Origin: Clostridia bacterium | GTDB lineage: Bacteria > Bacillota > Clostridia > UMGS1883 > UMGS1540 | NCBI GenBank assembly: GCA_017436645.1 | Contig: JAFSCR010000030.1 | Location: forward strand, 10,083 to 74,082 | Direction of reading: 5' to 3' | DNA: 64,000 nucleotides | Part shown: positions 7,090-32,895 of the stretch, piece after piece | Position numbering within the stretch: position 1 is the first letter of the stretch | Layout of the letters: every line of letters begins with the position of its first letter | Notes under the pieces: model-generated | Seen by the model: only the letters and a program-made list of their open reading frames with translations | The model's database searches: none | Told to the model about the DNA's origin: nothing | Translations under genes and position numbers: made by a program

Positions 7090-7774
7090 GCGTTTTCACC
7101 TCGAATTTGTATCCCACACCCCAGACGGTTTTCAGCTGCCAGCCGTCCTCATGGCCTTCCAGTTTTTCACGAAGGCGTTTGACGTGTACGTCCACGGTGC
7201 GGGAATCACCGAAATAATCAAAGCCCCACACTTCTTCCAGAAGCTGCTCTCTTGTATAAACACGGTTGGGGTGGGATGCCAGATGATATAAAAGCTCTAA
7301 TTCTTTCGGCGGCAGATTTATGGTTTCCTCGCCCAAAGTCAGCTCGTAATTGACAAGGCTTACCGAAATGCCGCTGTACCGGACAATTTGTTCTTCCGGC
7401 GTTGCTTTTTCGCCGCATCGCCTAAGTACTGCCTTTACTCTTGCCACAAGTTCTTTTGGTTCAAAAGGTTTTACAATATAATCGTCAGCACCCATTTCAA
7501 GGCCCAGAATTTTATCAAGGGTTTCGCCCTTTGCAGTCAGCATAATAATGGGAACGGAGGATGTTTTACGAATTTCTCGGCATACGTCCATTCCGTCAAT
7601 CCCGGGAAGCATCAAATCTAAAATGACAATGTCGGGCGAGGAAGCACGAAAAGCGGCGAGGGCCGTCTGCCCGTCGTACGCCGTGGTAACAGCATAACCG
7701 TCCTTTTCCAGATAAAGGCGCACAAGCTGGCATATATTTTTATCATCATCTACGACTAAACAAGTGCCTTGCAT
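7082..7774 (-). CDS. OmpR-family response regulator (REC plus winged-helix), CssR-like
   Basis: The start is chosen at MQGTCLVVDDD with RBS AGGAGG. The protein has an acidic pocket and D at position 53, and a C-terminal trans_reg_C domain (VWGVGYKF). Confidence 0.9.
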   Translation of the reverse strand: MQGTCLVVDDDKNICQLVRLYLEKDGYAVTTAYDGQTALAAFRASSPDIVILDLMLPGIDGMDVCREIRKTSSVPIIMLTAKGETLDKILGLEMGADDYIVKPFEPKELVARVKAVLRRCGEKATPEEQIVRYSGISVSLVNYELTLGEETINLPPKELELLYHLASHPNRVYTREQLLEEVWGFDYFGDSRTVDVHVKRLREKLEGHEDGWQLKTVWGVGYKFEVKTLV

Positions 7775-8873: not shown

Positions 8874-11225
8874 ATGGATACACTGAAAACATTGGAGTTT
8901 TATAAAATTCGCACGGCGCTTATGGCGGAGGCCGTTGTACCGGCGGCAAGAGAGGCACTTAATGCACTTTTGCCTTCTGCCGATACGGATACGGTCCGTA
9001 CCCTTCTTTCCGAAACGAGCGAAAGCAGAGCGTATACGGCAAAACACGGTACGCCGCCCATTTCCGCCATTTCGGAGGTGCACGGTGCGATCAAAAGAAG
9101 CCGTGTGGGTGCAACCCTTTCCATGGGAGAACTTAAAAATATCGCAGGCGTACTGCGTATGGCAGGGCAGCTGATTCGTTATGCGGATACGGAAGATTTT
9201 AACGTGCAGTATCCGGCTTTGGCGGCCCATTTTTTACGTCTTTCTGCATTTCATGATTTGGCACGGCGCCTTTCCGATGCCATTATCGACGAAAACACCA
9301 TGGACAGCGGCGCTTCTCCCGCCCTTTCCGTTATTCGCCGAAAAATTGCCGGCACTACGGAGAAAATCCGTGATATTCTCGATGAAATCATCAGAAGCCA
9401 GACGTATGCAAAGGTACTGCAGGAACAGCTCGTTACCATGCGTGCCGGCAGATACGTGGTGCCTGTTCGTGCAGAGATGCGAACATCCCTCCCCGGCGTT
9501 GTGCATGACACGAGCCAGACGGGGTCTACCCTTTTCGTAGAACCCATGCGGGTAGTGGAGGCCAATAACGCCCTTCATAAACTGCATGCCGAGGAGAAGG
9601 AAGAAATCCAGCGTATTCTGGCGGCCTTTTCCGAGGAAGTGGCAGCCATTGCTGATGAAATTCTGGAAAACTATGATGCCATCTGGCATCTTGACGTCAT
9701 TTTTGCAAAAGGACGGTATGGGGACCGCCTGGGCGCAGTTTGCCCTATAGTCCGTGCGGACGGCGGCGTGGAAATTTTAAGAGGCCGTCATCCCCTTTTA
9801 AACCCGAAGACGGTAGTGCCCATTGATATTTCCATCGGCACGGATTTTGACACCCTCGTCATCACCGGCCCCAACACAGGCGGCAAGACCGTTTCTCTCA
9901 AAACCTTAGGCCTTTTCGTCCTCATGGCGGCGGCAGGGCTTCACATTCCGGCGGCGGACGGTTCTTCCGTTTCCGTCTTCACCTATGTGTTTGCAGATAT
10001 CGGTGACGAGCAGAGTATTGAACAGTCCCTGTCCACCTTCTCGTCCCACCTTGTCAATATTATTGAAATTCTCCGCCTTTCCGGCGCACGTACGCTGGCC
10101 CTTTTCGACGAACTCGGTGCCGGCACGGACCCCACAGAAGGCGCAGCCCTCGCCCGTGCAGTCCTTTCTGAAATGCAGCGGAAAGGTGCCAAAACCGTGG
10201 CAACCACCCATTACAGCGAAATAAAACTTTATGCCCTTGAAACGGACGGGGTGGAAAATGCCGCTTGCGCCTTTGACGTAGAGACCCTTCGCCCTACATA
10301 CAGGCTCGAAGTGGGGGCGCTGGGGCAGAGTAATGCCTTTGCCATTGCATCTCGCCTTGGAATGCCGGAGGAAATTATTCAAAATGCAAAAGAATTTGTA
10401 ACGGCAGAAAACACACGGTTTGAAGACGTGATTCGTTCTCTCGAAAGTCAGCGCACCCGCCTTCGGGAAGAAAGAGAAACGGCGGCGGAGGACAGAAAAC
10501 GTGCAAGTGCCCTAAAAGAACGCCTTTCTAAGGATGCGGAAACCACCGAGGCAAGACGGCAGAAAATTTTAGAAGATGCCCGAAAAGAAGCACGGCAGAT
10601 GCTGCGGGATGCAAAGGCTGAAATTGATGCCCAGATTAAAGAAGCACAGGCGGCAGAAAACAAAAAAGCCGCCCTTGAAAAAGCACGGCAGAAGGTAACG
10701 AAAAAGCTGGATGCCGTTTCCGGGGAGCTTTCAAAAGATGCGGTTCGCCCTGCAAAGGTGGCAATCAAAAAAGAAGATATTAAAGAAGGCACACCGCTTT
10801 ATCTTGATGCCATGGGGCAGCGAGGCGTAGCCCTTCGTGCGCCCGATAAGGACGGCAACGTGGAAGTGCAGGTCGGCTTTATGAAAGTTAAAACCCATGT
10901 TTCCACCGTTTCTGCGGCGCCGCCCGAGAAAAAACCCAAGGTGAAAACGGCGGCGGTAGCAAGACGAAGTGACTCCTCCGGCGCCAAAACGGAGGTGGAC
11001 CTTCGTGGTATGACCCTCGATGAGGCAGAGCTTGTAGCCGAAAAGTTTATTGATGATGCCGTGTTATCTCATCTTGAAACCGTCACCATTATTCACGGCA
11101 AAGGCACAGGCGTTCTTCGAAGCGGTATTCACAGAATGCTTAAAACAAATAAATCGGTGAAGTTTTTCCGCCTTGGCGTTTATGGCGAAGGGGAAGACGG
11201 GGTCACCATTGTAACGCTTAAATAA
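8874..11225 (+). CDS. mutS2: endonuclease MutS2 (MutS domain V ATPase plus a C-terminal Smr domain)
   Basis: Walker A GPNTGGKTV, a KOW-like linker and a C-terminal Smr domain (DLRGMTLDEAE...HGKGTGVLR) are present across 783 aa. Confidence 0.95.
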   Translation: MDTLKTLEFYKIRTALMAEAVVPAAREALNALLPSADTDTVRTLLSETSESRAYTAKHGTPPISAISEVHGAIKRSRVGATLSMGELKNIAGVLRMAGQLIRYADTEDFNVQYPALAAHFLRLSAFHDLARRLSDAIIDENTMDSGASPALSVIRRKIAGTTEKIRDILDEIIRSQTYAKVLQEQLVTMRAGRYVVPVRAEMRTSLPGVVHDTSQTGSTLFVEPMRVVEANNALHKLHAEEKEEIQRILAAFSEEVAAIADEILENYDAIWHLDVIFAKGRYGDRLGAVCPIVRADGGVEILRGRHPLLNPKTVVPIDISIGTDFDTLVITGPNTGGKTVSLKTLGLFVLMAAAGLHIPAADGSSVSVFTYVFADIGDEQSIEQSLSTFSSHLVNIIEILRLSGARTLALFDELGAGTDPTEGAALARAVLSEMQRKGAKTVATTHYSEIKLYALETDGVENAACAFDVETLRPTYRLEVGALGQSNAFAIASRLGMPEEIIQNAKEFVTAENTRFEDVIRSLESQRTRLREERETAAEDRKRASALKERLSKDAETTEARRQKILEDARKEARQMLRDAKAEIDAQIKEAQAAENKKAALEKARQKVTKKLDAVSGELSKDAVRPAKVAIKKEDIKEGTPLYLDAMGQRGVALRAPDKDGNVEVQVGFMKVKTHVSTVSAAPPEKKPKVKTAAVARRSDSSGAKTEVDLRGMTLDEAELVAEKFIDDAVLSHLETVTIIHGKGTGVLRSGIHRMLKTNKSVKFFRLGVYGEGEDGVTIVTLK

Positions 11226-30286: not shown

Positions 30287-30310
30287 TTGCAGAAAGGAAG
30301 GAATAGTATA

Positions 30311-31321
30311 ATGAAAAAGTTTAAGCTTTTAACTCTTACACTTTTAGTGCTCGCAATTTGCATGACTTCTGTTTCTGCAACAGCAGCACTCAACCCCGTA
30401 GGTACATATGAAGAAGGTATTGTTACAGTAACTGCCAGCGGTGAAGCCGGTGCAGCTGATGCAACAATCATCGCAACTCGCCAGGATGGCGAATTAGATT
30501 CTGCTCCCGCCACTTTCTCTGAAGCAGACATTCTGGCTTCTGTTGTTTACATTGACCAGTTCGATGCAGCAGCAGACATGAGCGTAAGCTTTGCTCCTGA
30601 ACGTGTTGCAGAAGGCGACACAGTATCTGTATTTATGGCAGGCGCAGGCGCATCCGGTATTGAAATTGAAAACGTTTCTCTTGAAGAAGAAGAACCGGTT
30701 GACAGAACACTTGTTCTGACTCTCAACGGTGGTACTTTAGATCCCGCTGCTCCCGGTACATACCCCGAAGCAGGTTATGTTCTTCCCGAACCCACAAAGG
30801 CTGGCTTCACATTTGGCGGTTGGTACGCAAACGGTGAATTTACCGGTGATGCTGTTACCGAAATTGCTGCAGCAGAAGCTGCAATCGGTGGCGCAAAAAC
30901 ATTCTATGCAAAATGGTTAGAAAACGTTGCTTCCTTTGTATATGATTCCGGTTACTGTGCACCTGAAGAAGAAAGCGTAGAAGATGTTACTGGTGTTATC
31001 TCCGTAACAGTTTCTTTTGCAAGTCACATTGATAATGTTACAAATGCCGGTTTCTATGTATACCTGACAGGTGGTTTTAATGACAAGGTTGACATTAGTG
31101 GTGAATGCGCTGCATCTGACTTCTACACAGTTGTTTACGATATTCCTGAAGAAGAATTCGACACTACTATCATCTTCATGCCTTACGTTGTAACAGATGA
31201 AGGAACTGTATTCGGCACAGCACGTGAACTTACCGTTAATAGTGCATCTGCTCTCGGTGAACTCCAGTACTTAGGCACAATCGAAGATCTCGCAGCAGAA
31301 CTTGCTTTAGATGCTGAATAA
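30311..31321 (+). CDS. secreted protein with a Listeria-Bacteroides repeat (Flg_new) domain
   Basis: A signal peptide MKKFKLLTLTLLVLAICMTSVSA is present. One canonical repeat reads YVLPEPTKAGFTFGGWYANGEFTGDAVTEI...KTFYAKW. The product is acidic and has codon usage typical of a highly expressed gene. Confidence 0.7.
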   Translation: MKKFKLLTLTLLVLAICMTSVSATAALNPVGTYEEGIVTVTASGEAGAADATIIATRQDGELDSAPATFSEADILASVVYIDQFDAAADMSVSFAPERVAEGDTVSVFMAGAGASGIEIENVSLEEEEPVDRTLVLTLNGGTLDPAAPGTYPEAGYVLPEPTKAGFTFGGWYANGEFTGDAVTEIAAAEAAIGGAKTFYAKWLENVASFVYDSGYCAPEEESVEDVTGVISVTVSFASHIDNVTNAGFYVYLTGGFNDKVDISGECAASDFYTVVYDIPEEEFDTTIIFMPYVVTDEGTVFGTARELTVNSASALGELQYLGTIEDLAAELALDAE

Positions 31322-31336
31322 TTTCTGAAAATTTTA

Positions 31337-31365
31337 GAGGACGGAACATTCCGTCCTCTTTTTTT
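31337..31365 (+). terminator. rho-independent terminator
   Basis: agaggacggaacattccgtcctct followed by ttttttta. Confidence 0.65.
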
Positions 31366-31466
31366 ATAAAAATTTAGAGAACACCCATGGCCAAAAGAAA
31401 CGGGAATAAGGCCTTTTATTAAAATTCAAGTTGTTAATTATAGTAATATATATTTAATTGCAAATA

Positions 31467-31504
31467 AAAAGGTGCTGTAAATTTATTTACAGCACCTTTT
31501 TAGG
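31467..31504. terminator. second, bidirectional terminator hairpin
   Basis: aaaaaggtgctgtaaatttatttacagcacctttttag. Confidence 0.55.
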
Positions 31505-31860
31505 GGATAGGAAAAAATGTTCAGAATGGACAAACTGAGCCAAAGCCGCAGGCTTTGGGATACCCGAAGCTGTACTTCGTCAAAGCAAAGTCCACACGCT
31601 ACTTTTACCTAATCGGTAAAAATCCGCTTTGCTTCCTTGCTTTTCCTCCTCTCCAAAAGTCCGGTGGACTTTCCGGGGCCCCCGAAAGTCGCAAGACTTT
31701 AAGGGGAAAAGGAGTAACCGAGCGGAAAAGTGACTGTTTGCGAAAGCAAACGGAACATAAGCGAGAGTTGCGACGCCATCGAGCGGCGAAGTTTGTTTCA
31801 TAGCAAAAAGGCATATATGCAAAGAAAAACTTCAAAAATTTGAAGTTTTTCTTCATTTTG
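31505..31860. ncRNA. candidate structured non-coding RNA in a 600-bp ORF-free convergent intergenic region; class and strand unresolved
   Basis: The region contains dense nested helices: ccaaagccGCAGggctttgg, gtttgcGAAAgcaaac with a GNRA loop, aaagtccGGTggacttt, and the near-palindrome ggactttccggggcccccgaaagtc. It is flanked by terminator hairpins on both sides (31467-31504 and 31822-31851). There is no convincing ORF or RBS. Confidence 0.3.
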
Positions 31861-31965
31861 TGAATAATGTTAGTTTTCTCGTTTCTGTTTTTATTGTGTT
31901 TTCTGCCTTTTTGCGGTCTGGACTTTTTTTGCAGCCCCTTATTTCTGTTTATATTTTAAATTGAA

Positions 31966-32895
31966 TTATTCCGAAAAGAGAGGGGTGGAAAGATATCTGT
32001 CTCCCGTATCAGGCAGGAGAACCACAATGGTTTTGCCTTGGTTTTTCTCATCCCTTGCAAGCGTAACTGCAGCAGAAAGCGCTGCACCGGCAGAAATGCC
32101 TACAAGAAGTCCTTCTGTTTTTGCAAGAGAACGTGCGGCAAGATAGGCTTCTTCTTCTGTAACGGGCAAAACTTTGTCTAAAAGCGCCGTATTTAACACA
32201 GTCGGCACAAACCCTGCGCCAATGCCCTGGAGCCCGTGTGCGCCTTTTATTCCGCCGGAGAGAACAGGGGAACCGGCAGGCTCTACGCCGACGATTTGAA
32301 TGGACGGATTTTTTTCTTTTAAAAAAGAACCTACGCCCGTAATCGTGCCGCCTGTGCCGATACCTGAAACGAATATATCAAGATTTCCATCCGTGTCTTC
32401 CCAGATTTCCGGACCCGTTCCGTCAAAGTGAGCCTTCGGGTTTGCAGGATTATCAAATTGTCCGGGAATAAAGCTATTGGGAATTTTCTCGGCAAGTTCC
32501 TCGGCTTTTCGGATTGCCCCGTCCATACCTTCCGCACCCGGTGTTAAAACAATTTCGGCGCCAAAGGCTTTTAAAAGTTTTTGCCTTTCCACGCTCATGG
32601 AATCAGGCATGGTTAAAATGATGCGGTACCCTCTTGGAGCAGATACGGCCGCAAGACCAATGCCTGTGTTTCCGCTTGTGGGTTCAATGATGACACTACC
32701 TTCTTTTAAAAGACCGGCCGCTTCTGCTTCTTCAATCATTTTGCGTGCCACCCTGTCTTTTGCACTGCCTGCAGGATTAAAAGATTCCATTTTGGCAAGT
32801 AGTGCTATGGATATATGATTCGCCTTTTCAAAAGCAGAAAGACGTACCAAGGGTGTTTTTCCAATGCATGCACTAATATTCGGATAAATTTTCAT
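31966..32895 (-). CDS. cysK: cysteine synthase A (O-acetylserine sulfhydrylase)
   Basis: The PLP lysine motif [11 protein letters not shown], GxTGG ([10 protein letters not shown]) and the 309-aa length are canonical. Confidence 0.95.

Follow-up and report, generated by a model that had tools for sequence, protein, structure and literature searches.

A dispersed, structured and probably mobile repeat of gut Clostridia located behind the cysteine synthase gene cysK

Introduction

Positions 31502-31939 of a 64-kb stretch of contig JAFSCR010000030.1 (Clostridia bacterium, assembly GCA_017436645.1; the whole stretch is called the window below) probably constitute one copy of a non-autonomous, multi-copy, structured mobile repeat resembling miniature inverted-repeat transposable elements (MITEs), the hosts of which are uncultured gut Clostridia/Oscillospiraceae and one of their phages. 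Comparison of its copies showed that insertions are polymorphic and dispersed, that the ends are inverted repeats, that some copies are nested or truncated, that flanks have been reshuffled and that the three-way junction covaries; position and orientation are specific as well. A previous reading of the sequence alone had described 31381-31960 as a gene-free, helix-rich region between convergent genes and as a candidate for an unclassified structured non-coding RNA (ncRNA), for which a 6S-like or novel small RNA (sRNA) and the remnant of a mobile element were considered; the last of these comes closest to the evidence presented here.

Results

Insertion at the cysK locus

The segment is flanked by two convergent genes, a gene with a Flg_new domain on the left and cysK on the right. 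Four relatives (L089, L090, L091 and L150; collected loci carry L numbers) possess a cysK 75-81% identical to that of the window and the same neighbours (SLH/SH3 protein, cysK, convergent Flg_new gene), and in all of them the 437-438 nucleotides (nt) of 31502-31939 are missing, with an intergenic spacer of only 151-215 nt. Because a hairpin homologous to window 31465-31502 follows directly after cysK in L090, where the element is lacking, this hairpin is the ancestral, bidirectional terminator of cysK. The comparison thus shows that about 440 nt were inserted behind the cysK stop codon, ahead of the ancestral terminator hairpin, and the idea of a conserved single-copy sRNA gene belonging to this locus is contradicted by the four syntenic relatives without it.

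Metagenome contigs of the same species were 99.8-100% identical to the window, and L149, with a cysK of 97% identity, carries the window-type form of the element. In L092 (cysK 98% identical) both ends of the insert are kept around an interior of 66 nt versus 270 nt in the window, and the closing stem P1 changed from ACAAACTGAGCC/GGCGAAGTTTGT to CAATTTGTGCC/GGCACAAATTG, which amounts to two compensatory pairs and the repair of two mismatches. DNA to the left of the insert in L092 is unrelated to the window: at 7189-7412 (window orientation), where the contig ends, the 3' end of an unrelated gene (...NIDRRHQNNLFKLQLMPSFMPEGLKEGM*) replaces the terminator and the Flg_new gene. For this gene fragment of 48 amino acids (aa) beside the element neither a homologue nor a Pfam match was found. 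The element in L092 marks a rearrangement breakpoint. When genome contigs were searched with cysK, the best match was 69% identical and the element was present in 0 of 80 loci.

A cysK-like open reading frame (ORF) of 441 aa, scoring 625 bits to the CysK of the window, was additionally seen in a different context on a JGI contig (L088, 5001-11326), directly upstream of a type III-A CRISPR-Cas operon (Cas6, Cas10/Csm1, Csm2, RAMPs) and with no copy of the element.

Copies and hosts of the repeat family

The repeat was found in 51 gut-metagenome loci, in a small phage with an N4-gp56 capsid and in one further contig of a viral collection. The left-end pattern GGATAGGAAAAAATGTTCAG[AA] matched 53 metagenome loci, mostly from human gut, 51 of which were true copies; metagenome-assembled genomes (MAGs) among the hosts are labelled Clostridia, Ruminococcaceae or Oscillospiraceae. 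The same left end occurs on three contigs of the one small phage (terminase, N4-gp56-type capsid, holin, amidase), the copy beginning 3 nt past the capsid stop codon. An additional copy, L151, with a variant left end without ATG, was obtained by a search with the right end only. The search pattern does not account for the fact that the right end TTTGCGGTCTGGGCWTTTTTWACAKCCCC and the junction RTAGCAAA are conserved.

Several copies may be present per contig or assembly, and many contigs end within the element. Tandem copies with right-end/left-end junctions (L120, L123, L151), truncated copies (L109, L131, L139) and copies holding a nested element of 275 nt (L100, L133, L141) were observed, and flanks are reshuffled between loci, one left flank being combined with differing right flanks and vice versa. 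Unit lengths are 205-245 nt in the short form and 438-498 nt in long forms. BLAST of the 580 nt against phages and plasmids gave no relevant match, those to Terrisporobacter plasmids covering the terminator hairpin only. No description of the family was found in Rfam 15 or, by sequence and by keywords, in the searchable literature, where a match of TTGCGGTCTGGGC to miR-129 papers was coincidental.

The 275-nt element represents a second structured repeat (L100 4539-4813, also in L133, L141, L145 and L108), nested at the position of hairpin A and closed by GGCTGATGAT/ATCATCAGCC. Its stand-alone relatives (L123 8388-8623, L077 about 2569-2724) have inverted ends of ~25 nt resembling tRNA T-arms (GGGTTCAAGTCCCGTCAGCC) and TA on both flanks. 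Neither the 275-nt repeat nor these relatives matched Rfam or gave an ARAGORN hit. In the phage, the spacer just upstream of the copy (L094 2859-2949, the same in L093 and L095) contains TGCACTT tandem repeats in an imperfect hairpin of ~80 nt, which gives spurious matches to miRNA models.

Anatomy of the window copy

Searching the window with the family profile, nhmmer matched 31503-31578 (E 8e-13) and 31777-31938 (E 3e-17), and the outer limits correspond to the ends of the family. Since 31579-31776 remain unmatched by the profile, hairpin B is interrupted in this copy, which otherwise agrees with the family in its ends and in the junction of P0, P1 and P2. The parts are as follows:

31465-31502, no strand: ancestral bidirectional cysK terminator hairpin, an 18-bp perfect palindrome; the target hairpin, outside the element
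31502-31939, + strand: whole element, long form, delimited by family-profile nhmmer matches and by ends matching the family ends
31503-31527, + strand: left end, P0 5' strand GGGGATAGGAAAAAATGTTCAGAAT, identical in the phage and 51 metagenome copies; pairs with 31915-31938
31530-31541, + strand: P1 5' arm ACAAACTGAGCC with tandem G.A mismatch; pairs with 31785-31796
31540-31558, + strand: hairpin A, a module that varies; the phage, L123-type copies, L105, L130 and L151 have hairpins of other sequence here
31559-31578, + strand: 5' remnant of hairpin B, GATACCCGAAGCTGTACTTC, aligning with CCCGAAGCTGTA of other copies
31579-31776, + strand: private insertion of 198 nt that interrupts hairpin B and separates the two nhmmer matches
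31777-31784, + strand: 3' remnant of hairpin B, CATCGAGC, aligning with conserved CGAG(A)GG
31785-31796, + strand: P1 3' arm GGCGAAGTTTGT; pairs with the P1 5' arm, with covariation
31797-31802, + strand: junction with the conserved RTA of RTAGCAAA, from alignment A1
31803-31812, + strand: P2 5' arm GCAAAAAGGC; pairs with 31905-31914
31813-31904, + strand: AT-rich variable interior of P2, which holds a 15-bp palindrome at 31822-31853
31905-31914, + strand: P2 3' arm GCCTTTTTGC; pairs with the P2 5' arm, with covariation
31915-31939, + strand: right end, P0 3' strand GGTCTGGACTTTTTTTGCAGCCCCT, matching the family right end TGCGGTCTGGGCWTTTTTWACAKCCCC

As RNA of the + strand, 31502-31939 folds with a minimum free energy of -150.5 kcal/mol (z -6.2), a fold in which P0, P1 and P2 are reproduced; the - strand reaches -140.7 kcal/mol (z -5.4) and the + strand as DNA a z of -6.9. 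Relative to shuffled sequences the fold of this true unit is strong, while the core on which the sequence-only reading centred, 31503-31821, folds only modestly better (z -2.3 on the + and -2.6 on the - strand).

The 198-nt insertion is present in the same-species contigs L001, L002 and L149 and is absent from L092. It had no homologue among the collected loci or in IMG/VR and is hence without support by covariation; folded alone, it gave z values of -4.1 (+) and -2.6 (-). Inside it lie the helices of 31656-31690, the GNRA hairpin, CGAGCGG repeats and the motifs taken for 'RNase P' and 'SRP' (signal recognition particle). The helices cited by the sequence-only reading are real, yet most of them fall within this private insertion, and the structure supported by covariation (P0, P1, hairpin A, P2) is largely not the one described there, extending to 31939 and so past the supposed right-hand terminator.

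Family structure and folding strand

RNAalifold on an alignment of 20 distinct short-form copies (A1) yielded a three-way junction comprising 44 pairs, among which 18 carry double changes. In P0 the two ends pair with each other (GGGGAU/AUCCCC, A6/U6-7, GUUCAGA/UCUGGGC), P1 bears hairpin B and, optionally, hairpin A, and P2 is a stem (GCAAARRRS/...) enclosing ~100 nt of AT-rich variable sequence. Pairing was kept in 98.4% of 857 cells, compared with 38-55% when partners were slid, and changes on both sides occurred in 18 of 43 pairs (P1 8/10, hairpin B 3/7, P2 6/10); none of 500 shuffles reached the observed values. Cells of P0 are 99% paired, the tandem G.A is retained in P1, AGCAA is invariant and hairpin A comes in six or more versions unrelated in sequence.

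Wobble pairs differ between the strands, with G.U in 87 cells at 14 positions versus A.C in 2 cells at 2 positions; omitting P0, whose left strand was fixed by the search, G.U still accounts for 44 cells at 8 positions versus 2 at 2 for A.C. As wobble pairs are strand-specific, pairing amounts to 98.4% on the + strand of the window and to 88.4% on the - strand. The strand that folds is the + strand, which is antisense to cysK.

Placement of the copies and search for a mobilising partner

At 11 or more independent loci, the opposite strand carries a gene whose stop codon precedes the right end by 0-27 nt, so that the folding strand is antisense to that gene. Genes in this position encode Fe-ADH, ThrRS, a LivF-like ATPase, ProA, GNAT, SpoIVA, the phage capsid, a 174-aa protein, an unannotated partial ORF and, in the window, CysK; at three further loci such a gene (MiaB-like enzyme, second cysK, 137-aa ORF) is 54-199 nt away. 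In about 15 of 22 flank contexts the left end directly adjoins a hairpin with 2-7 T behind it, while the remaining left flanks hold a right-end remnant or no hairpin. This hairpin is often a perfect palindrome of right-end sequence, GGGGCTGTAAAAAAA...TTTTTTTACAGCCCC. Taken together, both ends define a layout of stop codon, right end ... left end and terminator hairpin, to which no clear counter-example was met among the loci examined.

A second, unrelated species (L123, element 10481-10761, tandem) carries copies 199 nt downstream of a cysK homologue, which could be coincidence or reflect a preference for certain terminators. At 31928-31955 (+) of the window a -35-like TTTGCA comes from the right end of the element and a TATATT, 16 nt away, from its flank. 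On reading the flanks, this hybrid, outward promoter-like site, aimed into cysK antisense, is not kept at other copies.

No conserved promoter was seen upstream of the left end, where the DNA varies among loci, being a terminator hairpin in the window as well as in the phage. Two promoter candidates were discarded by reading the copies: TGCTAY on the - strand as a -10 box never has T at position 6, and a promoter TTTACA-N17-AAAAAT at the right-end/left-end junction fits about half of the contexts and not the window.

Comparison with known RNA and element families

Rfam 15 was searched at gathering score over the whole 64-kb window and at E <= 10 over 31200-32100. No family reached the gathering score in the window, and ARAGORN found neither a tRNA nor a transfer-messenger RNA (tmRNA) gene there; at E <= 10 only terminator-like noise was returned and no match to RNase P, 6S, SRP, tmRNA or group II. 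The region is non-coding, structured and in no Rfam family, as had been proposed. Rfam E-value scans of the phage copy and of a long form likewise returned terminator-like noise only, and ARAGORN had no match on six loci.

Individual candidates were rejected as follows. RNase P RNA (RF00010/RF00011) had no covariance-model match at gathering score or E <= 10; 6S, SRP and tmRNA had no Rfam match, the 6S-like option failing even at E <= 10, and ARAGORN was negative for tmRNA and tRNA. A retron msr-msd is opposed by the lack of a reverse transcriptase (RT) in any flank and by the score of the retron model RT-2, 19 bits against a threshold of 40, within the private insertion and P2. A group IIC intron had no Rfam group II match, a 5' end (GGGGAUAGG) other than GUGYG and no ORF. 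REP/REPIN-RAYT was dismissed because the unit, at least 200 nt in length, forms a three-way junction and flanks contain no RAYT gene, and an integron attC site by the length of at least 205 nt, compared with 57-141 nt for attC, by ends that on reading show no core sites and by the housekeeping neighbours. A hammerhead-like core, a K-turn, an IS200/IS605 target tetranucleotide and Tn3-type inverted repeats of 38 bp were excluded on reading the sequence.

Sequence features of the intergenic region

The neighbouring genes are:

30287-31321, + strand: Flg_new-domain gene, with its own terminator at 31336-31359
31966-32895, - strand: cysK (cysteine synthase A), from its ORF and Pfam PALP; named cysteine synthase A in the source record

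The stop codon of cysK is 26 nt from the right end of the element, which thus lies antisense in the 3' region of cysK. The helices, motifs and palindromes listed by the sequence-only reading were all recovered within 1-3 nt: a hairpin CCAAAGCC-GCA-GGCTTTGG at 31540-31558 (loop GCA, not GCAG), AAAGTCC-GGT-GGACTTT at 31656-31672, a 24-nt palindrome at 31667-31690, the GNRA hairpin GTTTGC-GAAA-GCAAAC at 31736-31751, CGAGCGG at 31719 and again at 31780, perfect palindromes at 31465-31502 (18 bp) and 31822-31853 (15 bp), and the short motifs GGACTTTCC at 31666-31674 and TGCTTCCTT at 31630-31638. The RNase P and SRP families, to which that reading had noted short motif matches, were not matched in the Rfam scans. 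Of the two terminators said to bracket the region, the left one is the ancestral cysK/bidirectional terminator, whereas the right one (31822-31853) is an internal hairpin of P2. Composition was also described correctly, a GC-normal island (0.46-0.52) lying within an AT-rich spacer (0.24-0.34).

Freedom from genes holds in essence, no ORF having a Pfam match (three of ~80 aa included), except that a 31-codon ORF (31517-31612) exists behind a weak AGGA 4 nt ahead of its ATG. Neither the peptide nor the frame nor even the ATG is kept among other copies of the element: the MFR... mini-ORF behind AGGA-N4-ATG varies in frame and length and is missing in L151. The best promoter-like site of the region, TTTGCA-N16-TATAAT (31437-31464, - strand, 10/12), is situated just outside the terminator hairpin and aimed at the 3' end of the Flg_new-domain gene; an antisense transcript towards that gene from this candidate site is possible.

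Discussion

A mobile repeat or an RNA gene

Several traits of MITEs are found in the family. Its members are small and non-coding (205-498 nt, no conserved ORF, no Pfam match), the left GGGGATAGGAAAAAATGTTCAGA and the reverse complement of the right GGGGATGTAAAAAAAGCCCAGA are terminal inverted repeats that pair as P0, and 51 metagenome loci, phage copies and empty sites in relatives attest to copy number and insertion polymorphism. A fixed-length target-site duplication is lacking, and no autonomous insertion sequence (IS) with the same ends occurred in the ~0.4 Mb of flanks examined.

A number of observations weigh against a mobile repeat. The ~0.4 Mb of flanks yielded no transposase, recombinase or reverse transcriptase accompanied by matching ends, their clustered ORFs being orthologous housekeeping genes only, and no consistent target-site duplication was seen in 22 flank pairs, although recombination between copies may have erased it. 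The element is single-copy within the window, and as left ends were fished with an exact 20-mer, their invariance is partly an artefact of the search pattern. A strand-specific fold with tandem G.A and G.U is moreover what is expected of a functional RNA and not of a double-stranded inverted-repeat transposon; independent wobble events are few, at roughly 8-14 versus 2.

According to a different explanation, the family would consist of expressed + strand ncRNA genes, with a Y-shaped RNA of ~200 nt ending in the closing stem GUUCAGA/UCUGGRC and a terminator-like U-run, which would act in trans or as antisense to the 3' end of the convergent gene (here cysK), mobility being secondary. Strong covariation in P1, hairpin B and P2 would suit such genes, as would wobble found almost solely on the + strand with tandem G.A conserved in P1, peripheral helices that take large insertions around conserved junction sequences (RTAGCAAA, TTTGCGGTCTGGGC), and five to seven U after the closing stem in all copies; in the window, the right end even contributes to the site of TTTGCA and TATATT directed into cysK antisense. 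This outward site is not conserved on reading the flanks of other copies, however, a conserved promoter was not seen upstream of the left end, where window and phage have a terminator hairpin, and copies include truncated ones and an interrupted one, that of the window itself, and differ between close strains. RNA genes of this kind appear rather unlikely. It is improbable that the element acts in cis on the - strand, as a 3' stabiliser or processing site in the 3' untranslated region (UTR) of the upstream gene, in this case cysK. ERIC, REP and Correia repeats have been shown to act in this manner before terminators. Because the element always lies between a stop codon and a terminator-like hairpin, transcripts of that gene should include it; folding of the - strand is likewise good (z -5.4), and in the phage the gene ahead of the copy encodes the major capsid protein and is presumably expressed at a high level. 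Against this, the wobble asymmetry marks the opposite strand, with pairing falling from 98.4% to 88.4% on the mRNA strand, and close relatives manage without the element. Finally, it is hardly credible that the region is a decayed protein gene or a housekeeping RNA (RNase P, 6S, SRP, tmRNA) that has degenerated or diverged: only the short motifs GGAAAGUCC and AAGGAAGCA and three 80-aa ORFs speak for it, whereas Rfam gave no match at E <= 10 or gathering score, ARAGORN was negative, the ORFs lack Pfam matches, the motifs sit in the homologue-free private insertion, and the region is missing from relatives.

Relation to known systems

In behaviour and architecture the family appears closest to Correia, ERIC, RUP, BOX and REPIN/BIME elements. 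Correia/CREE (Neisseria), ERIC/IRU (enterobacteria) as well as RUP and BOX (Streptococcus pneumoniae) are MITE-like structured intergenic repeats, and Correia and RUP duplicate TA at their target. With these repeats the element shares a length of 0.2-0.5 kb, the absence of coding capacity, multiple copies and imperfect terminal inverted repeats folding into a long stem, furthermore an intergenic position beside gene ends with expected co-transcription with neighbours, a modular variable interior and insertion polymorphism between strains. It differs from them in the lack of a consistent target-site duplication and of a known partner IS, in being a three-way junction with strand-specific wobble pairs instead of a simple palindrome, in its strict placement between stop codon and hairpin and in being carried by a phage.

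REP units, 20-40 nt long, are palindromic and have a GTAG head, whereas REPINs measure ~100 nt; both are mobilised by RAYT, an IS200/IS605-like Y1 HUH enzyme, and REP/RAYT hosts are Proteobacteria. Like REP, REPIN and BIME, the element is extragenic at 3' ends of genes, keeps its hairpins by compensatory changes, forms mosaics and tandems and is found at a recombination breakpoint, and a fold specific to one strand is plausible here as well. Unlike REP and REPIN, it has at least 200 nt and three arms, lives in Clostridia and shows no RAYT gene in its flanks.

Class C (IIC) group II introns insert just after the stem-loops of intrinsic terminators. The element resembles them, and this is a resemblance only, in following immediately behind a stem-loop with a T-run when read in its own sense, in a structure selected on one strand and in a position of little harm to the host; in contrast to them it is only 200 nt long and has no domain V, GUGYG 5' end or intron-encoded protein. 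A structured RNA of 150-300 nt tied to the ends of an element is also known from IS110 bridge RNA/IS1111 seekRNA, TnpB/IscB omega RNA (HEARO) and retron msr-msd, and two variable stem-loop arms closed by terminal pairing recall retron a1/a2 with msr and msd. Unlike in these systems, no adjacent recombinase, TnpB/IscB or RT gene was present at any locus examined, and the Rfam models of HEARO and IS605-orfB were not matched.

A possible course of transposition

If the repeat is mobile, it would move via a single-stranded + strand intermediate (single-stranded DNA, ssDNA, or RNA), which would be recognised by its shape together with the conserved end sequences and be joined just 3' of a hairpin and T-run resembling the right end of the element itself. 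Joining at such sites would bring the element into a harmless position between stop codon and terminator, and joining beside right-end-like hairpins would explain tandem arrays as well as the placement before terminators. The copy of the window would later have been disrupted by the 198-nt insertion in hairpin B. As a likely effect on the host, the 3' UTR of cysK is ~440 nt longer and highly structured.

A more far-reaching proposal, which must be called unlikely as it stands, regards the family as a new kind of mobile element directed at hairpins and active as a Y-shaped single strand, either + strand RNA or ssDNA. This would serve as a self-contained guide or substrate that a trans-acting enzyme (HUH, DEDD or RT-type) inserts beside terminator-like stem-loops and would, in abundant uncultured gut Clostridia and their phages, at the same time be expressed as antisense or structured RNA.

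Conclusions

What had looked like an orphan structured RNA was resolved into a copy of a repeat family that is covered by no Rfam model. This is of help for the annotation of MAGs of gut Clostridia, where such repeats break assemblies and mimic ncRNA genes. As it is common to bacterial chromosomes and a phage, the latter offers one route of spread for the repeat. Its strict placement and strand-specific junction make the family a tractable case for how non-autonomous elements find terminators, and it is equally suited to asking whether such insertions alter 3'-end formation or give rise to antisense RNA.

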